This document shows positions 1,668-17,336 of a stretch of DNA of 32,000 bases, in pieces. The stretch's first letter is position 1. Each line of letters starts with the position of its first letter. The notes beneath the pieces were generated by a model. It was not told the origin of the DNA. It searched no databases and saw only the letters and a list, made by a program, of their open reading frames with translations. The DNA is taken from NCBI RefSeq assembly GCF_004006315.1, contig NZ_CP026530.1, forward strand, positions 585,889 to 617,888, given 5' to 3'. The stretch comes from Nautilia sp. PV-1 (GTDB lineage Bacteria; Campylobacterota; Campylobacteria; Campylobacterales; Nautiliaceae). The position numbers were made by a program, and so were the translations under genes.

Positions 1668-2548
1668 TGAGCACAAAAACCTGGAGATTGGAAAATTCTC
1701 CAATCACTCCTTTTTTCTTTCAAAACAATTTTTTTCATATTAAGCGCGACGATTTGTTAAGTAATGATTTTAACGGCAACAAAGCCAGAAAATTTTATTA
1801 TTTTCTGAATAATGAATTTCCGAATGTAAAAAGAGTTGTTTCATTCGGATCTAACCAGTCGAATGCAATGATGAGCCTGAGTGTTTTGTGTAAAATAAAA
1901 AAATGGGAATTCATATATTATACGAACCATATTCCGAAATACTTAAAACAAAATCCGGAAGGAAATTATTTAAAGGCTCTTCAAAACGGTGCTAATATAA
2001 TTGAAACGGATTTAAGAGGCGAGAAACTGATCAGATTTGTTAAATCGTTAAAAGATGAAGAAACACTGATAATCGAAGAGGGCGGAAGAATTCAGGAAAG
2101 TGAATACGGAATAAAACTTTTGGCCGAAGAAGTGAATGAATATGCACTTAATCATAATTTAAAAATTTTTCTTCCAAGCGGTACCGGTACAACAGCTTAT
2201 TTTCTTTCAAAACACGTAAATGTGGAGGTTCTAACGGTTCCTTGTGTCGGTGACGAAAACTATTTAAAAAAGCAGTTTAAATGGTTGGGAGGAGGGAAAA
2301 TACCTACCATTCTTAAACCCAGAAAAAAATATCACTACGGAAAACTCTATTCTGAACTTTATTTTCTGTGGAAAGAACTTAAAAATTCAGGAATAGAATT
2401 TGATCTTCTTTACGACCCTATAGGATGGGATACGATTATGTTCCACAATTTAAAAGATATACTATATGTCCATCAGGGCGGTATTTTCGGCAACAAAACA
2501 ATGATTAAAAGATATAAAAGAAAACTAAAACTCAACTCTTATAATTAA
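1667..2548 (+). CDS. PLP-dependent 1-aminocyclopropane-1-carboxylate deaminase / D-cysteine desulfhydrase family protein
   Basis: IKRDDLLSNDFNGNKARKF, FGSNQSNAMMSLS, LPSGTGTTAYFLS; overlaps the fbaA stop by 1 nt. Confidence 0.75.
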   Translation: MSTKTWRLENSPITPFFFQNNFFHIKRDDLLSNDFNGNKARKFYYFLNNEFPNVKRVVSFGSNQSNAMMSLSVLCKIKKWEFIYYTNHIPKYLKQNPEGNYLKALQNGANIIETDLRGEKLIRFVKSLKDEETLIIEEGGRIQESEYGIKLLAEEVNEYALNHNLKIFLPSGTGTTAYFLSKHVNVEVLTVPCVGDENYLKKQFKWLGGGKIPTILKPRKKYHYGKLYSELYFLWKELKNSGIEFDLLYDPIGWDTIMFHNLKDILYVHQGGIFGNKTMIKRYKRKLKLNSYN

Positions 2549-2688
2549 ACTTTCCAATCTGTTTAAAATTAAGTGTAACTTTTTTATACAAACCGCATAT
2601 CTTTTTAATATAAGTTTAATTTATAGTATTCATAAATGAATGTTCATTTTGATATTATTATATAATCAAATTTATTTTGGAGGGTAAT

Positions 2689-4548
2689 ATGGATACATTT
2701 ATTGTTCTAAGTATCGTATTGCCGTGGATTGCCGCTTTGGTGATTTATCTGGCAAAAAACGATTTTGTAACTAATCTGCTTTCATTTGCAATGCTGCCTA
2801 TTTTAGGTTATTTTGCATGGATGATTTATTCAAGTGGCAATTTGCCTTATTACATGGATACACCTAACTGGGTCGGATATCTGATAACGGTGTATGATTT
2901 CGGTTTGCTGGGATACTTTTTTTATCAGGGTATAAAAAATAAAAGTATGCTGGTTTCTTCACTTGCCGTTTTACAGCTTGTTCTTTTAACAATTGTTGTA
3001 TTTATGATTAAAGAGAGCGATACAGCCAACATATATGTTGATAAATTAACGGCGTTTATGTATATGATTGTAGCAATTGTCGGTGTTCCTATTGCGATTT
3101 TCGCAACTAAATACATGGAATATGACGAAAAAGGAAAACATAGCTTTGTAGCTATTTTGATCTGGTTTTTGGGTGTGATGAATTTCGCAGTAAGCGTTAA
3201 TAATATCGAATGGTTTTTTGCGCTGTTTGAGACAACAACACTTGCTTCATACGTACTCATCAGATTCAGAATGGACAGTGAAGCTGTTAATAACGCAGTT
3301 TTGGCTTTATGGATGAATCAGATTGGAGGGGTTGCTATTTTATTAGCTCTTCTGACTTTAATAAAAACAAGCGGTATTTATGATTTTACGGATCTGTTAA
3401 ACGCATCTCCGAAGGTTGTTTCACTTACGGCTTTAGGGTTTTTATCTTTAAGCGCGCTTGTAAAAGGCGCTCAAATGCCTTTTCACAAATGGCTTTTAGG
3501 TGCGATGGTTGCGCCGACACCCGTCAGTGCGATACTGCATTCGGCAACAATGGTAAAAATCGCTCCTTATCTGCTGCTTAGACTTTCACCTATTATTAAA
3601 GGCACTCTTTTAGCAAAACTTTTAATTATTACAACAGGTTTCGTGTTTGTTGCAGCTGCCGTTATAGCATTAACACAGGACAATTTCAAAAAAATTCTTG
3701 CATATTCAACCATTTCTCTGCTTGGACTTATGATGCTTGCCGCTGTTGTAGGTACGCCAATTGCGGTTACCGCAAGTCTTATTCTTATTTTATTCCATGC
3801 GTTTGCGAAAGGTTTTCTGTTCATCGAAGCCGGGGTTTTGGAAAAAGTATTTCACGTTAAATATATAAAAGAAATGAAAAGATTAATAGAAAGAGCTCCT
3901 CTTACTCTTATGTTTATTTTCTTTGGATTTTTAAATATGACGTTCGTTCCTTTCGGAACTTTTATAGGTAAATGGATTATGATTGAAGAGGCAAGTGGTT
4001 TCCTCTCTCACGGCAGTTATGTTCTGTTAATTCTTTATGTGGGTGCGGGAAGCGCATTTTTGAGCGTGCTTTATATGAAAGTATTGGGTATCAGTGTCAG
4101 AAAATCTCATGGAATAGAAAAAGTTAAACTTCTGCCTCTGCCAAAAAGATTTAACTTTGTATCAATCTGGTATTATGTGTGGCTATTGGCTCTGACAGTA
4201 TTTATCGCTCCGTTTATTGCTACGCAAATCGTTCCTGTTGCCACTGAAATAACCGGAAGCGTAGCTAATATTTATTCAGAACATCTGTCTTTGATTATTA
4301 ACAATTCAACATTGTATTTCTGGCAGATTATGGGAGCATTGATTATTTTATTATTAATTCACGCTCTTCCGTTTTTCGTACATTTCAAAAATGTAGATAC
4401 CGCTATGCCGTATAACTGTGGCGAAGCGTTCCCTAGACATATTGAAACATATAATTTCGTATGTATTTCAAAATATGAAAACTATCTGATAGCATTCAGT
4501 ATTGCTCTGTTTATTATGGTATTAGTTCTTGGAGGAGGTTTATTATGA
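2689..4548 (+). CDS. Group 4 energy-converting hydrogenase, NuoL/HyfB/EchA-like membrane subunit
   Basis: Track ORF starts at TTG 2677, but GGAGGG followed by ATG at 2689 is the better start. Multi-TM protein with LVKGAQMPFHKWLLGAMVAPTPVSAILHSATMVKIAPY and later subunits in order. Confidence 0.9.
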   Translation: MDTFIVLSIVLPWIAALVIYLAKNDFVTNLLSFAMLPILGYFAWMIYSSGNLPYYMDTPNWVGYLITVYDFGLLGYFFYQGIKNKSMLVSSLAVLQLVLLTIVVFMIKESDTANIYVDKLTAFMYMIVAIVGVPIAIFATKYMEYDEKGKHSFVAILIWFLGVMNFAVSVNNIEWFFALFETTTLASYVLIRFRMDSEAVNNAVLALWMNQIGGVAILLALLTLIKTSGIYDFTDLLNASPKVVSLTALGFLSLSALVKGAQMPFHKWLLGAMVAPTPVSAILHSATMVKIAPYLLLRLSPIIKGTLLAKLLIITTGFVFVAAAVIALTQDNFKKILAYSTISLLGLMMLAAVVGTPIAVTASLILILFHAFAKGFLFIEAGVLEKVFHVKYIKEMKRLIERAPLTLMFIFFGFLNMTFVPFGTFIGKWIMIEEASGFLSHGSYVLLILYVGAGSAFLSVLYMKVLGISVRKSHGIEKVKLLPLPKRFNFVSIWYYVWLLALTVFIAPFIATQIVPVATEITGSVANIYSEHLSLIINNSTLYFWQIMGALIILLLIHALPFFVHFKNVDTAMPYNCGEAFPRHIETYNFVCISKYENYLIAFSIALFIMVLVLGGGLL

Positions 4549-7333: not shown

Positions 7334-7843
7334 ATGATACAAATGTTTATCGAATCGTTAAAAAATTTAGTTTCAAAACCTGAAACAATAAAATATCCTT
7401 TTGCTCCTTCACCTGAGCCTAAAGGATACAGAGGTACTATTCTTTATAATGAAGAGCTTTGCATTTTTTGTGACAAATGTGAAAATATATGCCCTCCGGG
7501 AGCTATTAAGTTTGAAGTGGTTGATATAGAAAGCGGAAAAAAACAGTACAACTACAACCCGTATCTTTGTATTTACTGCGGAGCATGTGTTGATGCGTGT
7601 CCGAAAGCCGAAGAGGGATGCCTTACCCAGTCGGAAGCAAGAACTCCCGTAATGGGAGAAAGCGTGATAAAAGATCCTAAACTAGGATATTTTATAAACG
7701 AAATAAATAATCCTAAAGAAGTTGAAAAAAAATGGCGTGAGCTTGAAATAAGAGCTGCCGACAGCCGTGAAAAACTGGCTGAATACAAAAAAGCAAAAAG
7801 AGCTGCGGCAAAAGCTGCAAAAGCAAAAGCGTCTGCCGAATAA
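7334..7843 (+). CDS. 2x[4Fe-4S] ferredoxin-like hydrogenase subunit (NuoI/HyfH/EchF-like)
   Basis: CIFCDKCENICPPGAIKFE and CIYCGACVDACPKAEEG; Ala/Lys-rich C-terminus. Confidence 0.88.
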   Translation: MIQMFIESLKNLVSKPETIKYPFAPSPEPKGYRGTILYNEELCIFCDKCENICPPGAIKFEVVDIESGKKQYNYNPYLCIYCGACVDACPKAEEGCLTQSEARTPVMGESVIKDPKLGYFINEINNPKEVEKKWRELEIRAADSREKLAEYKKAKRAAAKAAKAKASAE

Positions 7844-7915
7844 CATTTAAACCTTCCTTTTTTTTCTCTTTAGGTGTATAATATATTATGAATCTTTATT
7901 CATAAAGGAACCGTT

Positions 7916-8830
7916 ATGAAAATAGCCTTTTTTGAAATCAAACCTGAAGAGAAAACTTTTTTTGAACAAAATCTAAAAAATCAGGAGCTTTATTTTTTTG
8001 AAGAAACGATAAATGAATATGCCGGGTCTGCAGATTTTGATGTGATTTCAGTATTTATACATTCGAAACTCGATAAGAATGTACTTGATAAATTTAAAAA
8101 TCTTAAATATATACAAACCCGCTCTACCGGAGTCGATCATCTCGATTTGGAAGAAATATATAAAAGAGGACTGTTTGCAAGCAATGTAGTAGGGTACGCC
8201 GGTCCGTGTGTAAGCGAGTTTGCTTTTTCTCTTTTGCTGGAAGCTTTAAGAAAGACGTATATAGCAATACAGAGGGTAAAAAACGGAGATCTGTATTATT
8301 CTGATTTGAAAGGCAGCGAAATACAGGGTAAAAGAATCGGTATTTTAGGGCTTGGCACAATCGGGACCCATATTGCTCAAATCGCAAAAGGTTTCGGTGT
8401 TCAGAGCATAATAGGCTTTAACAGAAGCAAGAAACTGATAGAAGGCGTGGAATATACCGATAATCTTGAATACACTCTAAGAAACAGCGATATACTTTTT
8501 ATCGCCCTTCCGCTTACTAAAAGCACAAAAAATTTAATTAATTCTGAAAATATAACTTTTTTTGACGGGAATATAATTATAAATCCGGCGCGTGCCGAAA
8601 TTATCAGTTTTGAAGTTTATAACAGTTTTGAGGGTATAATTGCAGCGGATGTATTGCCGGATTGGAATCTGGCTAAAAAAGAAAATATAATAGCAACACC
8701 GCATATGGCTTATTACACTAAAGAAGCGCTATTTAGAATTATGGAAATTTCTCTTGAAAATATTAAGGATTTTATAAACGGTAAAAAACCTAGAAACTGT
8801 TTAAAAATATTTTATGAAAAGGAGAAATAA
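7916..8830 (+). CDS. D-2-hydroxyacid dehydrogenase (NAD-dependent)
   Basis: GKRIGILGLGTIGTHIAQIAKGFG nucleotide-binding motif; NPARAEII; AADVLPDW. Confidence 0.85.
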   Translation: MKIAFFEIKPEEKTFFEQNLKNQELYFFEETINEYAGSADFDVISVFIHSKLDKNVLDKFKNLKYIQTRSTGVDHLDLEEIYKRGLFASNVVGYAGPCVSEFAFSLLLEALRKTYIAIQRVKNGDLYYSDLKGSEIQGKRIGILGLGTIGTHIAQIAKGFGVQSIIGFNRSKKLIEGVEYTDNLEYTLRNSDILFIALPLTKSTKNLINSENITFFDGNIIINPARAEIISFEVYNSFEGIIAADVLPDWNLAKKENIIATPHMAYYTKEALFRIMEISLENIKDFINGKKPRNCLKIFYEKEK

Positions 8831-9189
8831 TGCTAAAAAAAACCGTCTGTTTAGCATTATTTGCAACTGTATCGCTTTATGCGTGCAGCAGCGACTGTCT
8901 GGAATGTCATCCTAAATTAAAACAGTTGGAATACAATAAAACAAATAAATATTATAAAGAGCATCATTTTTTGATTACCTGCACAAAATGTCATAAAAAC
9001 CATCCTAGTAAAGGTATGGATGAATGCGGAGCAGACTGTTTTGACTGTCACAGCAGAAAAAAACTTATAAATACGCCCGTTCCGGAACATCAGAAGTTAA
9101 GTACTTGCACAAAATGCCATAAAGATACGCTTCAGCAGATTATTCCGGCTCAGCCTAATAATGACTTTTTAAATTTCAAGCAAAAATAA
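8830..9189 (+). CDS. Small tetraheme c-type cytochrome-like secreted protein
   Basis: 119 aa with signal peptide-like N-terminus and four CxxCH motifs (CLECH, CTKCH, CFDCH, CTKCH). Confidence 0.8.
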   Translation: MLKKTVCLALFATVSLYACSSDCLECHPKLKQLEYNKTNKYYKEHHFLITCTKCHKNHPSKGMDECGADCFDCHSRKKLINTPVPEHQKLSTCTKCHKDTLQQIIPAQPNNDFLNFKQK

Positions 9190-9208
9190 AATTTAAATTT
9201 TATTTTTG
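9181..9208. terminator. Candidate bidirectional terminator: perfect 28-bp A/T palindrome
   Basis: CAAAAATAAAATTT|AAATTTTATTTTTG between convergent genes, overlapping both stop codons. Confidence 0.5.
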
Positions 9209-11583
9209 TTCACTTCTTTTAACATTGCGTTTGCCATAGTGTTGACTTTGTTTGCAATATTGTCGACTGTAAGGATATTTTCTTCCATTTTTTGTGTTTT
9301 TTGATTTACATTCATTATCTTTTCGGAAGTAGTATTAATTTTGTCGGCCTGATTTACAATACTTTCTCCTATTGTCGTTATAGACTGGGTTAAAATATTT
9401 ATATTGCTATCAATTTCATTTAAACTTTTTTGTGTTTTTTCAGCTAATTTTCTGACTTCGTCTGCAACAACGGCAAAACCTCTTCCGTGTTCTCCGGCTC
9501 TTGCAGCTTCTATAGCGGCGTTTAAAGCAAGTAAATTGGTCTGATCGGCTATTTCCTGTATTATTTTTACAATATTTTTAATATCGTGAGACTGTTCTAC
9601 TACATTTTTGGTATCGTTTGATATATTTAATACTTCTTCGTTTATCATTTGAATATCGTTTGTTACTTCGGAAAGCTCCTCAGACGCTTCTTTGGCAAAA
9701 TGTTTCAGCTGATTCATTTTTTCTTTTAATTGATTGGCTGAAGCGTTTAACTCTTCACCGTTTTCTTTATTTTTGCTTAATATATTTACAATGGTTTCAA
9801 GCACGGAATTAACGGCTTTTTCAACTTTACCTACCGCATGTTCTATTTTTTTGCTGAAGTCCCTTTTCATAGCCCTGTCGAGAACATATACCGTTTTATT
9901 TATGTCTTTGCCTATTATCATTTGAAAATTTTCAAGCATCGCATTGAATATATTTCTTATTTTTTCCAATTCAGGATCTGCCGCTTTTTCACGGATTTGT
10001 CCTTCGAAAATGCCTTTTTTCATTTTTTCAACTTCATTTCCTAAAGCCGTAATCATTAAATTGTCCTGGGCTAGTTTCTGTTCTATTTTTACAATGTTTT
10101 CATTTACTGTTTTCGCCATTTTTCCAAATTCGTCCATGGTGTTGATTTCTATTTCTTTTGCTGAATCGGTTTCTTTGTTTATAAATCTGAAAAACTCGTT
10201 TAATCCGTCTTGGAATATTTGAATGTTTGTTATTATGTTTTTAGATGTTAAGAAGATCATAAATGCGATAATAATAAATAAAAGCAGATACAGCGTGCTG
10301 ATTAGTATTATAAGCTCTATGTTTGTTTTATAGTCGGAATCAACAATTTTTAATATATCTTTTTTTATATAATTTATAATATTGTTTAACGTTTTTATTT
10401 TGTTGTTAATTATTTTTAAAAACTGTTTGTTGTTTTCTTTTAAAAAGAAGAAATTGCTTAAATTTCCTATGATATTTAATACATCCCCGTCATGTTCTGA
10501 TAGTTTGTCATTTAATTTTTCTAAAGGAAGGTTGCCGTTTTTTTCTAATATTTGTATTTTTTGATTATAGATATTTAAAAGTTTGTGTAATAGATTTTTT
10601 TCTATGTCGGTAACATAAGGTAGGGCAAGATAAGAGTTAATATCGTCTTTTAGATCGTCTACGTCGCCTTTCATATCGTCAATAAGATCTTTGTCTTTTG
10701 TTGCGTAATAATTTCTTAAATCTGTTTCAAAGCCGTTTGCTCCTATATCGTCTTTAATAAAACTGACCTGGATTTTTTTGTCTATATCATGCAGAAGTAC
10801 GTTTTCAATATAAATTATTTTTCTAAAAATATTCTTATTGGCATTTATCTGTGAACTGTAATAATCCAATATGTTTTTGGGTGCATTTTTTTTGAAAAAG
10901 TTAATAAAGGTTTTTTGTTTGGTTATAACCTGTGAAAAAAGTTCATAACTTTCCGGGCTGAACAGACCGCTTGAAATAGCTTCGGAGGCTATGATTTTTT
11001 CTATTTCAGTTTTTTCTTTGGTATTTAAAATAGCAAAATAAGAATTTATTATTTTAGAAAGTTTTTCATCCGGGGATAAATATGAAAGTGTTTCAAAAAG
11101 GGAGATTAAATTTGAATTTAATTGAGAATAAAAGGTAATAACCCTGTTTGTTTTTACTAAACCTGTATCTATCTTTTTTCTGACGGTGTTTAAATTTGAA
11201 AGATTATCCAGAATGATTTTTATTTTTTTATAAAAGTCGTAATTTATGTTATTTATTTTCTGCAATGTTATGTGATTTAAAGTAGTAATAAATATATTTT
11301 TGCCGGTATCGGTGTTTTTTCTTTGTTTGAGCATTGCGTTTTTATCGGAAGGGTCTTTTGAATATAAATAAAAAACGGATAATGTTCTTTCTTTTTGAAG
11401 TTCGTTTACTAATTTTTCGGCTTTCAAAGTTAACTGCATTAAGGTCTTGATATTATTAAGCCGGTTTATGTTTTCATATCTTTTATAAATAGAACTTATC
11501 ATAAGCCATAACAAAAAAGCGGACGGAATGACTGTTATAAGCATTATCTTTCTTTTAATTGACAGGTTTTTGAAGAAATACAT
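9193..11583 (-). CDS. Methyl-accepting chemotaxis protein with N-terminal NIT-like (nitrate/nitrite-sensing) domain
   Basis: 796 aa; [21 protein letters not shown] resembles the NIT-domain signature; two TM segments; MCP core [40 protein letters not shown]. Confidence 0.85.
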
Positions 11584-11964: not shown

Positions 11965-12040
11965 GGTCGCTTAGCTCAGTTGGGAGAGCACCAGCCTTAC
12001 AAGCTGGGGGTCGCAGGTTCGAGCCCTGCAGCGACCACCA
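11965..12040 (+). tRNA. tRNA-Val (anticodon TAC)
   Basis: GGTCGCT/AGCGACC acceptor, CTTACAA anticodon loop, encoded CCA. Confidence 0.95.
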
Positions 12041-12057
12041 TCTACAATGCCAAGAGT

Positions 12058-12135
<78 letters not shown>

Positions 12136-12186
12136 CACTTCAAAAACTCCGTAATTTCGGTATCTTTTAAAAATCAACGAGGTAAG

Positions 12187-12230
12187 TGTCAGTCGTTTTT
12201 GGCGGATTTTTACTGACAATTTAACTGACA
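12187..12230. repeat. Candidate left integrase arm sites
   Basis: Inverted TGTCAGT at 12187-12193, direct ACTGACA at 12212-12218 and 12224-12230 (12-bp period); same pair near the right end. Confidence 0.55.
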
Positions 12231-12263
12231 AATTTTATTTGTTTTTAAAAAATTATTTTATTT

Positions 12264-12692
12264 TTATAAATGTATAATTTCTATATTAAAAAATTTTTTT
12301 AAATATTCTGCACTTAATCTTCTGTGACATTTATCAGCTGTCTTTTCACTACATAATAAAACTGCATTTTCAAAATCATTAATATTTATTTTATCTTCTA
12401 TTTTTCTTTCTTTTAATAAGTTTAAAAAAATATTTTCATATTCTTCCCATGTTATTTTTTTATTTTTATAGTTTTTCAATAATTCTTCTGTTGGAAAAAA
12501 AAGTTTGTTATGTTCATATTTAATACCATGTAATTTTAAAAAATAAGGAAAATGTTTTATATTTGTAAAGCCAGCAAGTTGTGACTTATTATTTAATCTT
12601 ATATCTATAACTTTTTGTATATTATTTCTAGTTAGTAAATTAAAAAATTCTTCCGCACTTTTTCCAGAAAATCCAATTGTAAATAATTTCAT
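12264..12692 (-). CDS. DUF488-family protein (short form)
   Basis: MKLFTIGFSGKSAEEFFNLLTRNNIQKVIDIRLNNKSQLAGF...WEEYENIFLNLLKER...AVLLCSEKTADKCHRRLSAEYL. Confidence 0.85.
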   Translation of the reverse strand: MKLFTIGFSGKSAEEFFNLLTRNNIQKVIDIRLNNKSQLAGFTNIKHFPYFLKLHGIKYEHNKLFFPTEELLKNYKNKKITWEEYENIFLNLLKERKIEDKININDFENAVLLCSEKTADKCHRRLSAEYLKKFFNIEIIHL

Positions 12693-13303
12693 TCATTATC
12701 CCCTTCTTTAGTAAATATATTGTAAGCTATATCTATATTTCTAAGCTTATATGCTTTTTGTAATCTTTCTTCATCGCTGATTTCAGGATGAAATAAATTT
12801 TTTTCTGGTAAAAATTTTATATATTTTTCCAAAAGTTTTTTTTCAAGGTAGGCTTGGGATAGTATTTTATCAGGATAAATATGATAAATATTAAATTTAT
12901 TTCTTAGGAATCTTGAAATTAAAGAAAATCTGTGGCAATCAAACGCTTCTTTTTCGCTGCACATTAATGCGATTTTATAACCTTTTTTTACCCCGTTTAA
13001 AATTCTATCAATTCCGTCTTGAAATTTTTTAGTTTGCATTACTTTTTCAAAATTTACTTTTCCATCTTCAAAAATTAAATTTTTATCTTCCCATCTTGCA
13101 CCTAAAGAATTGCCCATAAATATATAATAAATTTTGTTTTTCTTTAAATAAAATTGTAAATCTTCTTTATTGAACCAGTAAGCATATTTTGAATAAGGAA
13201 TACTTCTTACATCTACAATTACATCAATATTATTTTTTTGAAGTAATTTTATAAAATCTTCTAATTTATGTGTAGAATGCCCTATCGTGAAAATTTCTTC
13301 CAT
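12689..13303 (-). CDS. DUF488-family protein (second, distinct subfamily, 204 aa)
   Basis: EIFTIGHSTHKLEDFIKLLQKNNIDVIVDVRSIPYSKYAYWFNKEDLQFYLKKNKIYYIFMGNSLGAR...IALMCSEKEAFDCHR; 4-nt overlap with the downstream DUF488 gene. Confidence 0.85.
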   Translation of the reverse strand: MEEIFTIGHSTHKLEDFIKLLQKNNIDVIVDVRSIPYSKYAYWFNKEDLQFYLKKNKIYYIFMGNSLGARWEDKNLIFEDGKVNFEKVMQTKKFQDGIDRILNGVKKGYKIALMCSEKEAFDCHRFSLISRFLRNKFNIYHIYPDKILSQAYLEKKLLEKYIKFLPEKNLFHPEISDEERLQKAYKLRNIDIAYNIFTKEGDNE

Positions 13304-13322
13304 TTTAATTAAACTCCTATAT

Positions 13323-13988
13323 CTATAAACCTAGGATATCCCATACCTTCTTTTCAGGAAGTATATCTACAAATACTTTTGCAATAATTTTATAACAGTT
13401 GCCGTTAAATGGTTCTCCTAAACTAACAACGAGATAAACATCTTCTATAACTTGTTCTTTTAAATATTCAAAATCCGGATCAGTTAATGGCAAATCGTAA
13501 GTTATATTATTATATATAAATTTTCCTCTTCTTTGCAAAGATTTATTATTTCCTCTATCTTTCCAATATAAACTGATTTTATTAACCTTAATTAAAAAAA
13601 GAGAATAATTAATTTTAAGGTTTTCATCATACTTTATATAATTTTCTTTTCCCCATAAGCTTTTAGGAGTATACACAAAATTTTCTAATTCCTTTAAGTC
13701 AATTTCATTTATAAATTCAATTTTTTTATCAATAATAACATTTTCTGGTTGACAATTTAAAGGAACTTCTTTTAATATTTTTATTTTTGCCAAAAAAGGA
13801 AGATTATTTCGTATTGGAAATATGCAATTATATCCGAGTATATTATAGTCACTCCAAATAATTTCTTTTCCGTTTTTATCTGCAACTATTCGGTAAAATT
13901 TTTTATTATGTATGTCAATTACTGCTACACAATTTTCTGAATGTTTTACTGATGAAGCTACAAAAATTACTTTTTTTTCCAAAATCAT
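13323..13988 (-). CDS. Hypothetical protein resembling dual OB-domain (DuOB-like) family; first gene of the DUF488 operon
   Basis: FVASSVKHSENCVAVIDIHNKKFYRIV..., PLNCQPENVII, YDLPLTDPDFE resemble the family from memory only; 19 nt from the next gene. A TTG start at 13982 is possible, because AAGGA abuts the annotated ATG. Confidence 0.5.
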   Translation of the reverse strand: MILEKKVIFVASSVKHSENCVAVIDIHNKKFYRIVADKNGKEIIWSDYNILGYNCIFPIRNNLPFLAKIKILKEVPLNCQPENVIIDKKIEFINEIDLKELENFVYTPKSLWGKENYIKYDENLKINYSLFLIKVNKISLYWKDRGNNKSLQRRGKFIYNNITYDLPLTDPDFEYLKEQVIEDVYLVVSLGEPFNGNCYKIIAKVFVDILPEKKVWDILGL

Positions 13989-14085
13989 TCCTTAATTTTA
14001 AATTATATTATATATTTTACTTTAATACTTTTTTAAAAGCAAGGAATAAATTTTCAACTTTAAGTTTTAGCTTTATAAAAAATCA

Positions 14086-15411
14086 TTAATCTCCAATATT
14101 TTTACTGCTTTTTATACGTTTTTTTGAAGTATGCGTTAATGTTTTGTTTATTTCATTTTTTCCGTTTTTTTCAGCTTTATTTTCTTTATTAAATTCATAT
14201 TCCATTTCCGTATAATCCCTTTCAATTTTAAGTTTGACATTTTCATTTTCTAAATCTTTGATTTTTGTTTTTAAGATTTGATTTTTCTCTTTTTCCTGTT
14301 TCAGTTCTTTTTGAAGCTGTTTTACTCTAAAAACGGCTTCGATGAATTCTTTGCCATAGTCTTTTTTGGTTGATGTTGTGGATTTGATTATCTTTTTAGC
14401 CTTATCGGTTTTAATAACTTTTTCTTTTTTAATCAATCCTGTTTCGGTTGAGTGTTTTTCGATAAGCTCAAGCTGTCTTTTTCTAATTCTCTCTTTGATT
14501 GAATTTTCAAATTCGTTTAGCATATGATTTATGTCTTTAAGGGTTGAGACTTTTAAAAGTTTTTTGATTTGAGATAACGTTTGGTAATCATCTTTGGTAA
14601 ATAGTTTATATTGTTCGTTTGCTTCTTGGAGTTTATTATAGTCTTTCATCTGGTTTCTTAATTTTTGGATTCTTTTTTCAAGTCCTTTTTTGGTAAGTTC
14701 GAGTTTTCTGATTTCGGCGTCTTTAAGTAATAAATCTTTTTTTAGTTTTCTGTTTTTCTCTTCAGTTTGTTTTCTTAAATTTTTTTCTTTTTCAAGCTCT
14801 TTTTTTAATTTTAAAACTTCATCGTTTTTAATTTTCATGGCTCTTTTGTATTCGTAGGTGTCAAGTCTTTTTGGTCTTTTTTTCTTTTCTTGCGTATAGT
14901 TTACGCCTCTAGGCATGTTTAAGAGTTTTGCGACTTCATCCTGAAGGGTAATTAAATCTTTTTTGTCCATTTTTCTTCTGACACTCACACCTTCGTTGTC
15001 TATTCCTATAAAGAGTATATGTGCATGATAGTTGATAATTTTATTTCCGTTTTCATCTATGTGTCCTTCGTCTTTATGGATGGCAAACTGGATTACTTTT
15101 GTGTTATATCTTTTCTCAATAAATCTGACTATTTTTTCCAAATCTTCTTTTGTGTGTTTTTCGTTAAGGTTGATTACGGCACTGAAAAGGGTAATCGTTT
15201 TTTTATGAAGTTTCTTACCTGTTCTTCTTTGATAAAGTTCCGTTCTTTTTTTAAGTTCATTGAAATATAATTCCATTGCTTCGTTTGCTTTAAGACTGCA
15301 GTAATTATCATCTTTACTGAATATTGAATTGTTTGTATCCTTTTCCCTGCTGTTGTGATAGAATTCACCGATATTCGCTTTTTCAATATGGATTGAGGAT
15401 TTTCTAATCAT
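14086..15411 (-). CDS. Mob/Pre (MobV-like) plasmid mobilization relaxase with long coiled-coil C-terminus
   Basis: N-terminal SSIHIEKANIGEFYHNSREKDTNNSIF; FAIHKDEGHIDENGNKIINYHAHILF (HxDE plus HxH metal-binding motif); RGVNYTQEKKKRPKRLDTYEYK; AAGGAG RBS upstream. Confidence 0.78.
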   Translation of the reverse strand: MIRKSSIHIEKANIGEFYHNSREKDTNNSIFSKDDNYCSLKANEAMELYFNELKKRTELYQRRTGKKLHKKTITLFSAVINLNEKHTKEDLEKIVRFIEKRYNTKVIQFAIHKDEGHIDENGNKIINYHAHILFIGIDNEGVSVRRKMDKKDLITLQDEVAKLLNMPRGVNYTQEKKKRPKRLDTYEYKRAMKIKNDEVLKLKKELEKEKNLRKQTEEKNRKLKKDLLLKDAEIRKLELTKKGLEKRIQKLRNQMKDYNKLQEANEQYKLFTKDDYQTLSQIKKLLKVSTLKDINHMLNEFENSIKERIRKRQLELIEKHSTETGLIKKEKVIKTDKAKKIIKSTTSTKKDYGKEFIEAVFRVKQLQKELKQEKEKNQILKTKIKDLENENVKLKIERDYTEMEYEFNKENKAEKNGKNEINKTLTHTSKKRIKSSKNIGD

Positions 15412-15598: not shown

Positions 15599-15787
15599 TT
15601 AGTTTATCGTAGAAGATGTTTGAGGTTGTTGAATGTTATTATTTGGAAGTGAGAGAAGTTTGTTTAATTCAGATTGAGTAATATTAATCTGTTCTTTTAT
15701 CTTTTTTATTTTCGATTCCAGTAGGGCTTCTTCTTTTTGCAGTTTTTCTAACTTATTGATTAGCTGTTTTATTTTTCTGTAATCCAT
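15599..15787 (-). CDS. Small coiled-coil protein (possible mobilization accessory protein)
   Basis: 62 aa, MDYRKIKQLINKLEKLQKEEALLESKIKKIKEQINITQSEL...; AAGGAG 7 nt upstream of the ATG; divergent from the HTH gene. Confidence 0.5.
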   Translation of the reverse strand: MDYRKIKQLINKLEKLQKEEALLESKIKKIKEQINITQSELNKLLSLPNNNIQQPQTSSTIN

Positions 15788-15935: not shown

Positions 15936-16151
15936 ATGAAGCCTTTTTGTTACTCTACATCTAAAATGGCAGACTATCTCGGTGTAAGTAAAGACTTTCT
16001 TCTTAAAAACAAGAATAAACTCTTCAAAAAAGGAATCCACTATTACGAACCGTATGGAATAAAGAAAACCTTATGGAACGTAGCACAGATGGAAAAATGG
16101 ATAACGGGCAGGGAGGAAAATCCTTTTAAAGAGATTTTAAATGAGCTATAA
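15936..16151 (+). CDS. AlpA/excisionase-like helix-turn-helix DNA-binding protein
   Basis: 71 aa, STSKMADYLGVSKDFLLKNKNKLFKKGIHYYEP...KTLWNVAQMEKWITG; 39 nt upstream of the integrase. Confidence 0.6.
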   Translation: MKPFCYSTSKMADYLGVSKDFLLKNKNKLFKKGIHYYEPYGIKKTLWNVAQMEKWITGREENPFKEILNEL

Positions 16152-16190: not shown

Positions 16191-17264
16191 ATGATAGAAA
16201 ATCCAAAAGTTAGTTTGTTTAATAGAAAAGGGAGATTATACGTTCAGTATTATATAAACGGCAGGTGTGTTCAAAAGTCACTTAAAAGGGATTACACCAA
16301 AGAAAACGTTAAGCTCGCTAAAAAATACGTTATTCCCGAAATCGAGAGGAAAATACTTTTAGGCGAGATTCAGGACAGTAAATTTAAACCCAAAGAATTC
16401 AAACATTACGCCGAGCTGTATCTGAAACAAAAAGAGTCTCTTAAAACATGGAAAGAGTTTAACAATATGGTTTCAAACCAGTTGATACCCGTTTTTGGAA
16501 GTTATACGATAGATAAAATCTCAAAAGGCTTCATCAAGCAATGGGTTGATGAGAGATTAAAAGAAGTCTCACCCATAAGAATGCAAAAATTTCTTGGAAT
16601 TCTTAAAGCCATATTTGAAATAGCAATTGACTATGAGCACATAAAAGAAAATCCTTGTGACAGAATCAAACTTCCAAAACATAATCCGATTAGGCAGATG
16701 TATCCTTTCAGTAAAGAGGAAGTAACTCTTATACTTAACAATGCTGACGGATGGTTTAAAAACTATTTGGCAATCGCTTTTATGACTGGTATGCGTCCGG
16801 GTGAGATTATCGCTTTAACGATTGATGATATCGATTTGGAAAATAAAACCATTAACGTAGATAAAAGAATCAAAAAAGGCGAAATAGGCACACCCAAAAC
16901 AAAACACTCAATAAGAAAAGTTCCTATAATGGATGAGCTTATCCCTTATTTAAAAAATCAAATCGAAACTCAAAAACAAAAAGGTCTTGATTTACTCTTT
17001 ACCACAATCAATAACAGGATGTATTACGACAGCGATAAATTCCATCCCTTCTGGTACAGACTGCTTGATAAGTGCGGTATTGAGAGAAGGGTAATGTATA
17101 ACACCAGACACACGTTTGCCTTAAACGCAATAAGAGCGGGTATCAATATACTTGACGTATCACAGATACTCGGACACAAAGATTCATACGAGACTCTTTC
17201 AACCTATGCGAAATACATAAAAAACGAACATTTAAAGATTAAAAGAGACATAAAACTTTACTGA
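16191..17264 (+). CDS. Tyrosine recombinase / phage-type integrase
   Basis: GMRPGEI (R), TPKTKHSIRKVPI (K region), YNTRHTFALNAI (xxxRH), ILGHKD (H), TLSTYAKY (Y); GGAGG RBS upstream. Confidence 0.93.
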   Translation: MIENPKVSLFNRKGRLYVQYYINGRCVQKSLKRDYTKENVKLAKKYVIPEIERKILLGEIQDSKFKPKEFKHYAELYLKQKESLKTWKEFNNMVSNQLIPVFGSYTIDKISKGFIKQWVDERLKEVSPIRMQKFLGILKAIFEIAIDYEHIKENPCDRIKLPKHNPIRQMYPFSKEEVTLILNNADGWFKNYLAIAFMTGMRPGEIIALTIDDIDLENKTINVDKRIKKGEIGTPKTKHSIRKVPIMDELIPYLKNQIETQKQKGLDLLFTTINNRMYYDSDKFHPFWYRLLDKCGIERRVMYNTRHTFALNAIRAGINILDVSQILGHKDSYETLSTYAKYIKNEHLKIKRDIKLY

Positions 17265-17278
17265 CAGTTCTACTGACA
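17260..17278 (+). repeat. Candidate right integrase arm sites
   Basis: ACTGACA at 17260-17266 and 17272-17278 (12-bp period), the first overlapping the integrase stop codon. Confidence 0.55.
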
Positions 17279-17318
17279 ACATAACGAAAAACACCATAAA
17301 TTCAATGTTTGAGAAATT

Positions 17319-17336
17319 TCCCGTCGGCTCCGCCAT
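17319..17336 (+). repeat. attR core repeat
   Basis: TCCCGTCGGCTCCGCCAT, exact copy of 12118..12135, not part of a complete tRNA. Confidence 0.85.

Follow-up and report, generated by a model that had tools for sequence, protein, structure and literature searches.

The subject of this study is a three-gene operon of Nautilia sp. PV-1, located at 12264-13988 of a 32,000-nt stretch of its genome (contig NZ_CP026530.1, positions 585,889 to 617,888 of the forward strand; hereafter, the window, to whose numbering the coordinates below refer unless another locus is named). The three open reading frames (ORFs) are on the minus strand and encode a dual OB-fold (DuOB) protein (13323..13988, 221 aa), a long paralogue of the DUF488 family (12689..13303, 204 aa), and a short DUF488 paralogue of the DUF488-N3a type (12264..12692, 142 aa), collectively referred to as the trio. 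The assignment is based on Pfam and PADLOC matches for all three proteins, to which an AlphaFold2 (AF2) model adds for the DuOB and the short DUF488 protein, a Foldseek search for the DuOB protein, and the invariant motif residues for the long DUF488 protein. A previous reading of the window from its letters and ORFs alone (the sequence-only reading) had described three tightly packed leftward genes, and the ORF coordinates agree with this description: the long and the short DUF488 genes overlap by 4 nt (ATGA), and 19 nt separate the DuOB gene from the long DUF488 gene. Both DUF488 genes are preceded by a good Shine-Dalgarno motif (e.g., AGGAG 11 nt 5' of the long DUF488 start). The three genes are one operon, with the order DuOB, long DUF488, and DUF488-N3a, in which the two DUF488 genes are translationally coupled. 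The true start of the DuOB gene is probably the TTG at 13982 (219 aa) and not the ATG at 13988 (221 aa), because the NCBI record of the protein is 219 aa long and the AAGGA directly abuts the ATG, while its spacing to the TTG is normal. Within the 97 nt that precede the DuOB gene is a putative promoter on the minus strand (14007..14036; TTAAAA, an 18-nt spacer, and TATAAT, i.e., 10 of 12 positions in a consensus scan), which represents weak evidence in such an AT-rich region.

The three proteins match, component by component, PDC-M45, a candidate defence system of the PADLOC-DB v2 collection. Specifically, the DuOB protein matches PDC-M45A (3.2e-27, residues 1-206), the long DUF488 protein PDC-M45B (7.8e-57, residues 2-196), and the short DUF488 protein PDC-M45C (2e-52, residues 1-141), and the genes are contiguous on one strand (12264-13988), as are those of PDC-M45. 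The catalogued system consists of the same three families (A, DuOB; B, a ~204-aa DUF488; C, a ~145-aa DUF488) and shows no structural difference from the trio, the new element being its carriage by an integrative element in the tRNA-Asp of Nautilia. Based on these sequence matches, it is almost certain that the trio is an operon and a member of PDC-M45. The sequence-only reading had proposed a novel system, and this proposal has to be abandoned since the exact cassette is already a PADLOC candidate and its domains have dedicated Pfam families. That is, the trio is a real member of a catalogued, functionally uncharacterised candidate system. The PDC set comprises 145 phage defence candidates, untested according to their authors, that were selected for having members embedded in BREX, DISARM, or type I restriction-modification (RM) loci (Payne et al. 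2024, bioRxiv 10.1101/2024.01.29.577857), and PDC-M45 is the three-family cassette CAS_00153 of that set, listed with the number 68 (Payne et al. 2024, supplementary table). No functional study of DUF488 was evident by title or abstract in the searchable literature that mentions the family. The relevant Pfam families share one nomenclature (DuOB, PF22557, and DUF488-N3a, PF22751, in the window; mSLOG, PF22565, in the variant loci described below), and the families and names, including that of DUF488-N3i, reportedly originate from the 2023 work of Burroughs and Aravind.

Conservation and variation of the cassette

The locus survey covered 53 loci of the GTDB species-representative genome collection together with others, and their ORFs were classed by hidden Markov models (HMMs) derived from the window proteins and their relatives. 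The GTDB sample was drawn with a DuOB subfamily alignment and is biased toward a variant with a different third gene (mSLOG-DUF4326), from which this alignment came; a close-family DuOB alignment found no locus in the GTDB species-representative collection. The DuOB family as a whole comprises 718 representative clusters at E <= 1e-3. All five of the closest relatives, which are found on metagenomic contigs, combine DuOB with a ~200-aa and a ~143-aa DUF488 protein. The gene orders observed were DuOB, N3a, mSLOG-DUF4326 (42 loci); long DUF488, N3a, DuOB (9 loci); and DuOB, long DUF488, N3a (8 loci), and a further 6 loci were incomplete, including ones that lie at contig ends or whose DuOB match is truncated. 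Hence, the invariant core of the cassette is DuOB plus DUF488-N3a, and the third position is taken by either of two ~200-aa proteins that exclude each other. The sequence-only reading had considered rare co-occurrence elsewhere as a finding that would speak against a system; instead, the genes of DuOB, the short DUF488, and a third protein of the putative rhodanese-phosphatase fold are adjacent in essentially all loci examined.

Within this core, N3a, a predicted enzyme, is the most conserved and a near-universal partner of DuOB. The pairwise-identity matrices of the two families are strongly correlated (Mantel r = 0.82), a value reached by 0 of 999 permutations. In loci with two DUF488 genes, N3a invariably comes directly after the long DUF488 gene, in most cases overlapping it by 4 nt, and this constant arrangement suggests a stoichiometric pair of the two proteins.

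The mSLOG-DUF4326 variant (L006, L008, L013, L014, and L017-L050; e.g., L006 10001-11659) replaces component B with a gene for which PADLOC-DB v2 has no model, and PDC-M45 annotation therefore probably misses or truncates this variant. The DUF4326 domain keeps an analogous motif, C-x-C-K-P-x2-C-H-G-D, that hhalign aligns weakly with the DUF488 motif (E = 0.012-0.08). Given that both DUF488 and DUF4326 keep their cysteine motifs, each variant carries two different, apparently competent cysteine enzymes. The mSLOG domain has a nucleotide-binding, SLOG-type fold. For DUF4326, an action on ribose-linked phosphates of ADP-ribose (ADPr) derivatives has been proposed (Iyer et al., PMC9503650). Taken together, the fold and this proposal hint at a nucleotide-derived co-substrate or signal.

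Properties of the DuOB and DUF488 proteins

The sequence-only reading had assigned the 221-aa protein to DuOB, an OB-fold nucleic-acid-binding family. Consistent with this assignment, the protein matches the Pfam DuOB family over the complete model (positions 1-210 of 210; 8.7e-36, 124.4 bits vs. a 27-bit cutoff), and its AF2 model consists of two beta-barrels (strands 4-95 and 130-205) and has a mean predicted local distance difference test (pLDDT) score of 72.6 and a predicted template modelling (pTM) score of 0.72. The best Protein Data Bank (PDB) matches of the model by Foldseek are tandem-OB proteins, i.e., the HIN-200 family (MNDA, AIM2, IFI16, and p202), LEF-3, and Teb1/RPA70 (E 2.6e-4 to 1e-3, probability 0.99-1.0), and LEF-3 is again the top match in the viral fold library (BFVD). 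What HIN-200, RPA70 AB, Teb1, and LEF-3 share with DuOB is two consecutive OB barrels in a module of ~200 aa. Tandem-OB modules bind DNA, and it is through HIN domains that an innate-immune sensor detects DNA. The likeness to HIN-200 is, however, architectural only, with 7-14% identity, another barrel orientation, and no sequence homology; in PDB sequence searches, the DuOB protein had no match even at E <= 10, HIN domains included. Further, DuOB has distinctive invariant polar residues and a cysteine that HIN and RPA are lacking. These invariant residues are S13, K15, C20, R33, Q80, N83, T169, and D170, and the conserved motifs are S-x-K-H-x3-C, QPEN, and TD.

Fusions of the DuOB domain in other proteins (P0049, P0060, P0087, P0131, P0147, and P0081) involve RecQ C-terminal modules (RQC, HRDC, and HTH_40) or the phage recombination-module domains DUF1351 and Gp157 (Sipho_Gp157), and this domain company supports a putative DNA-directed role. 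One of these proteins, P0087, resembles the C-terminal region of a RecQ helicase with DuOB at its very end. DuOB is also the fastest-evolving component of the cassette, with a mean pairwise identity of 35.6% vs. 44% for the long DUF488 and 52% for N3a, which fits a recognition module that operates with conserved enzymes.

The two DUF488 proteins had been attributed to different subfamilies by the sequence-only reading, with the FTIG and CSEK…CHR motifs kept in both, and this view was upheld throughout. The short protein matches Pfam DUF488 (PF04343; 2.7e-18, 67.2 bits vs. a 22.2-bit cutoff) and, at 32.1 bits, exceeds the 27-bit gathering cutoff of DUF488-N3a; the long protein matches DUF488 (2.6e-23, 83.4 bits vs. 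the same cutoff) and scores 19.2 bits against DUF488-N3a. Accordingly, only the short paralogue is DUF488-N3a, and the two proteins are 31% identical to each other. The long protein comprises a DUF488 domain at residues 1-141 followed by a conserved C-terminal tail of ~60 aa. FTIG is found at residues 4-7 of the short and 5-8 of the long protein, and CSEK…CHR at residues 114-124 and 115-125, respectively. More broadly, neither paralogue family shows any variation in C-x-E-x5-C-H-R, T-I-G, or D-x-R: residues 114-116 and 122-124 of the short protein are 100% conserved among 57 orthologues, and C115, E117, C123, H124, and R125 of the long protein are invariant among 16. Because of this conservation, neither copy is decayed, and we rejected a decayed duplicate as an explanation for the second gene. 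The long protein is also unlike DUF488-N3i (the 'inactive' type) in that it retains every catalytic-motif residue. As judged by their motifs, both enzymes look competent.

In the AF2 model of the short DUF488 protein (pLDDT 91.2), C114 ends strand beta4 and is followed by a loop (115-121) and a helix that starts with C122-H-R124, a modelled strand-Cys-loop-helix arrangement that resembles the one of cysteine phosphatases and rhodaneses. Polynucleotide 5'-phosphatases of the cysteine type (metazoan capping-enzyme RNA triphosphatase, baculovirus BVP, and DUSP11/PIR1) provide an analogy for the chemistry proposed below: they act independently of metals at the termini of their substrates, where a strand-end cysteine and a phosphate-binding loop with an arginine form a Cys-phosphate intermediate. 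The arrangement in the model of PDC-M45C appears similar to that of these phosphatases, which differ, however, in having a CX5R loop vs. C-x9-R with a second cysteine (C-x-E-x5-C-H-R) in DUF488.

The C-terminal half of another PADLOC family, PDC-M19A, is also similar to both DUF488 proteins (E about 1e-18), and thus a DUF488 domain is fused to another domain in that separate candidate. Among phages, only distant relatives of DUF488 were found, in Gordonia phages (e.g., NC_031061.1 33860-34246) and in one Salmonella jumbo phage (SA002, 143897-144139), with 24-31% identity to the short DUF488 protein; one phage record labels its DUF488-like gene 42 'HipA toxin', which looks mis-annotated.

The integrative element and its surroundings

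The trio lies within a 5.2-kb element at the end of a tRNA cluster (Lys, Glu, Val, and Asp). The cluster ends at 12134 with tRNA-Asp (12058-12134), and an exact 18-bp direct repeat, TCCCGTCGGCTCCGCCAT, that consists of the last 17 bases of tRNA-Asp plus one further base is present at 12118-12135 (attL core) and 17319-17336 (attR core). Just inside attL is a pair of (T/A)ACTGACA repeats on the plus strand (12209..12231; copies at 12211 and 12223), with an inverted copy at 12188-12194, and a matching pair of TACTGACA repeats, also on the plus strand, lies just inside attR (17257..17279; copies at 17259 and 17271). Exact octamers of this repeat occur three times in the window vs. 0.38 expected by chance, and the paired repeats are probably arm-type sites of the integrase. 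An 86-aa minus-strand ORF (11971-12231) that is antisense to tRNA-Val and tRNA-Asp is an artefact of mechanical ORF calling.

Not counting ORFs that lie within longer genes, four ORFs of at least 60 aa accompany the trio. The tyrosine integrase (357 aa, 16191..17264, plus strand) has the Phage_integrase domain (Pfam, 1.5e-22), SAM-like N-terminal domains, and a PHROG 1 match (6.8e-69). Directly upstream, on the same strand, lies a 71-aa ORF (15936..16151) that is excisionase-like by position only and had no family match in Pfam, PHROG, or NCBIfam. On the minus strand, a 62-aa coiled-coil ORF (15599..15787) gave weak coiled-coil-type matches only, and a 441-aa ORF (14086..15411) appears to be a Mob/relaxase-like protein. 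The latter consists of a conserved N-terminal domain of ~190 aa and a Lys/Glu-rich coiled coil, and had no match in Pfam, PHROG, or NCBIfam either; a tblastn search with its N-terminal 190 aa found similar ORFs on 166 plasmids, mostly cryptic or mobilizable plasmids of 3-5 kb from Campylobacter, Arcobacter, Helicobacter, and Bacteroides. It contains HKDEGH…NYHAHI, which we take to resemble the MOBV HxDE…HxH motif, and it may represent an unmodelled relaxase family. Together, the integrase, the tRNA-end repeats, and the Mob gene (a call that rests on the similarity to the small-plasmid ORFs) are the features of an integrative mobilizable element, and the Nautilia sp. PV-1 element is probably integrative and mobilizable. 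Its GC content is 0.23-0.27 vs. 0.32-0.39 in the flanks. The trio is the sole cargo, as the sequence-only reading had noted: all else between the 18-bp repeats is element backbone.

The backbone genes of the window had no homologue in any other trio locus fetched, from which it follows that the trio moves between unrelated backbones. A model in which the trio is tied to one lineage of mobile elements was rejected on the same grounds. To the left of the tRNA cluster are two host genes, one encoding a 119-aa secreted-looking protein with four CxxCH-type motifs, similar to a small multihaem cytochrome (8830-9189, plus strand), and, adjoining it, one encoding a 796-aa chemoreceptor with a nitrate/nitrite-sensing NIT domain (9193-11583, minus strand).

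Genomic context and possible functions of the trio

The trio has a patchy distribution, with hosts in Campylobacterota, Gammaproteobacteria, Firmicutes, Desulfobacterota, Cloacimonadota, and Acidobacteriota and in one archaeon. Plasmids that carry it number 23 and are mostly small (4-48 kb). For instance, the trio of the DuOB/N3a/mSLOG-DUF4326 form (2370-4028) represents the only ORFs >100 aa of the mobilizable Klebsiella pneumoniae plasmid pB16KP0202-4 (L013, 4167 bp), and Acinetobacter plasmids of 10-35 kb carry the trio beside RelE/ParE and Rep genes. Several other loci are located in defence islands. In Eubacterium infirmum (L009, 5994-8903), the trio directly follows SIR2 and HerA and precedes a type I RM shufflon; at L012, it is part of an island inserted in a split yebC-like gene, together with an integrase, a MORC-like ATPase, AbiH, a resolvase, and type I RM. 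In Psychrosphaera, it lies between a block of large helicase and AAA genes and HipA, and in Sulfurimonas it adjoins an integrase, a transposase, and ParE.

Two further neighbourhoods recurred. A HerA-like ATPase adjoins the DUF488 pair of Sulfurihydrogenibium azorense Az-Fu1 (L068), and HerA is also present at the E. infirmum locus; this recurrence could be a coincidence or reflect a functional link. Homologous J-domain (DnaJ) proteins, 83% identical over their C-terminal 64 aa, adjoin the trio in the two closest metagenomic relatives (DnaJ sites at L001 4514-5563, L002 1511-2314, and L057 19710-19883), on contigs that are rich in small same-strand ORFs and plasmid- or phage-like. The cassette does not appear to be phage-borne: DuOB had no match in 50,697 phage records or in two pattern scans of viral contigs (IMG/VR), and we rejected a phage-encoded or counter-defence reading for this reason.

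Overall, the trio is a conserved, co-inherited, and horizontally mobile operon that encodes two proteins with intact cysteine motifs and a tandem-OB protein, and the data support a nucleic-acid-directed role and a conflict-type genomic lifestyle. We consider a role in conflict or defence, against phages or other mobile genetic elements (MGEs), to be the probable one, albeit with some reservation. The defence inference made by the sequence-only reading is reasonable, and others have reached it independently. The abstract of the Burroughs and Aravind work is said to predict new DNA-end processing activities in nucleic-acid-modifying conflict systems of the RapZ-C-DUF488-DUF4326 clade. Further, four of eight randomly picked PDC or Hma-embedded candidate (HEC) systems protected E. 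coli (PMC12881386), a rate that provides a fair prior for defence by the trio.

How the trio might operate can be outlined in a model. DuOB would recognise foreign nucleic acid, either incoming or replicating, by its single-stranded DNA (ssDNA) or by a DNA end or junction, and would position on this target two cysteine-dependent enzymes of the rhodanese-phosphatase fold, the first being the near-universal DUF488-N3a and the second being exchangeable (long DUF488 in Nautilia, mSLOG-DUF4326 elsewhere). The enzymes would then perform consecutive phosphate or sugar-phosphate transfers at the terminus via a Cys-linked intermediate, and the ends so modified would resist ligation, extension or priming, circularisation, and packaging. 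That is, if the trio defends, the end chemistry itself would be the effector. We regard the chemistry of this model, i.e., Cys-phosphotransfer at nucleic-acid termini, as tentative, and in the explanation as a whole (a PDC-M45 operon with a conflict role that is exerted by end chemistry), which we weight toward the conflict role, we have about as much confidence as doubt. More doubtful than the chemistry alone is that the trio provides immunity through an effector of a new kind, with no nuclease, NADase, or membrane toxin, in which a HIN/RPA-like tandem-OB sensor would deliver two different cysteine enzymes to the DNA or RNA termini of the invader for the removal or transfer of a phosphate, sugar-phosphate, or thio group and would thereby prevent ligation, priming, circularisation, and packaging of the foreign molecule; the long DUF488 and mSLOG-DUF4326 would, in that case, represent two chemistries or two co-substrates of the second step.

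Several observations weigh against a defence operon that acts on nucleic-acid ends. With respect to context, the window flanks encode housekeeping functions (an aldolase, hydrogenase/complex-I-like subunits, the NIT-domain chemoreceptor, peptidases, and ClpB), and no other defence gene is found in them near the trio. Elsewhere, L011 (tyrosyl-tRNA synthetase, TyrRS, and aldolase) and Campylobacter lari (miaA) have only housekeeping flanks. When the 112 proteins encoded by the closest neighbours of 28 loci, two to either side, were scanned against PADLOC and Pfam, the picture was diffuse: defence families were a minority (type I methyltransferase 3, mad2 4, type IV restriction endonuclease 2, and SoFic 2) and many other neighbours were housekeeping (aconitase, DNA polymerase III alpha, aldolase, and TyrRS); since the scan had no control set, no statistical enrichment is claimed. 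The proximity to known defence genes that the sequence-only reading had implied holds for several loci in RM, Abi, and SIR2-HerA islands, but not for the many housekeeping neighbours or for the window itself. S. azorense Az-Fu1 has the DUF488 pair (7441-8438) with no DuOB detected by tblastn, and the searchable literature yielded no experiment on this system and no mention of PDC-M45, or of DuOB together with phage.

With respect to the proteins, none of the three has a recognisable nuclease, NADase, pore, or other classical toxic effector domain. The confidence of the DuOB model is moderate (by its pLDDT), with TM-scores to HIN and LEF-3 of only 0.35-0.41; the family has a median pI of 6.5 and is thus not a basic polyanion binder, and its invariant residues look like a specific ligand or catalytic pocket rather than a generic ssDNA surface. 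For the short DUF488, the assignment to the rhodanese-phosphatase fold did not reach significance, as the best Foldseek match has E 0.02 and PTP-fold phosphatases appear only at 0.3-1.5; no solved relative of DuOB or of either DUF488 paralogue was found by sequence and profile searches of the PDB. Finally, instead of DNA ends, the trio might act on RNA, a nucleotide, or a protein.

Alternatively, the trio might serve the mobile elements themselves, with a function in the establishment or persistence of small plasmids and integrative elements, the processing or protection of their ends or ssDNA intermediates, anti-restriction, or addiction. This is unlikely in our view, yet it is the alternative that survives best. 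It would account for the trio being the only cargo of a 5.2-kb, Mob-carrying element and the only substantial ORF set of the Klebsiella plasmid, for its carriage by the 23 plasmids (the Acinetobacter ones with their RelE/ParE and Rep neighbours included), for the fusion of DuOB to recombination- or replication-type modules, and for the common ParE and HipA toxin neighbours. However, many chromosomal copies have no mobility gene within 6-8 kb and lie between housekeeping genes or in RM islands, and the unrelated backbones show that the trio is not bound to one transfer or replication mechanism. Defence systems, too, are typical sole cargo of small mobile elements, and no toxin-like or antitoxin-like small partner is evident.

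A second alternative, which we consider improbable, is an accessory function in nucleic-acid repair or end-healing, or in the metabolism of nucleotides or ADPr derivatives, with no role in conflict; the DUF488 enzymes would take off phosphates or sugar-phosphates that block damaged DNA or RNA ends bound by DuOB. DUF488 proteins in general are widespread as single-gene proteins (e.g., E. coli YeaO), which would fit such a function, as would the loci flanked only by housekeeping genes (L011 and C. lari), the DuOB fusions to RecQ C-terminal modules, and the ADPr-related activity proposed for DUF4326. On the other hand, PDC-M45 has been found embedded in RM, BREX, or DISARM loci (Payne et al. 2024). 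The spread of the trio is patchy and horizontally driven, involving plasmids, the integrative element, and defence islands, and the GC content of the element is atypical, whereas a core repair function is expected to be vertically inherited and taxonomically coherent. Lastly, a thiol or persulfide relay that would draw on the rhodanese side of the superfamily, in which the DUF488 cysteines and Cys20 of DuOB would pass sulfur or another group onto DNA or RNA and thereby mark self or poison non-self, is very improbable: all components have invariant cysteines (two per DUF488, three in DUF4326, and one in DuOB), the S-x-K-H-x3-C, QPEN, and TD motifs of DuOB look like a pocket, and sulfur- and selenium-transferases acting on tRNA belong to the rhodanese-phosphatase superfamily (the abstract by Burroughs and Aravind reportedly mentions them), but at no examined locus does the trio have a linked cysteine desulfurase, ATP-dependent activating enzyme, or other source of sulfur, a cognate restriction partner is missing, and the C-x-E-x5-C-H-R loop exceeds the classical rhodanese loop in length.

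The results have implications for both the annotation and the biology of these families. The mSLOG-DUF4326 variant is the commoner one in our sample and is only partly covered by PADLOC v2, and thus the current annotation of the system is probably incomplete. The Nautilia element and the 4.2-kb Klebsiella plasmid represent minimal natural packages, i.e., a mobile backbone plus the trio, and are convenient for a first functional test of DUF488 and DuOB. If the trio does not defend, the case would call for caution with candidates whose defence role is assigned by guilt-by-embedding, that is, from being embedded in known defence loci. If the trio does defend, a nuclease-free effector that acts through the chemistry of nucleic-acid ends would be added to prokaryotic immunity, and DUF488, a large family, would receive its first function.

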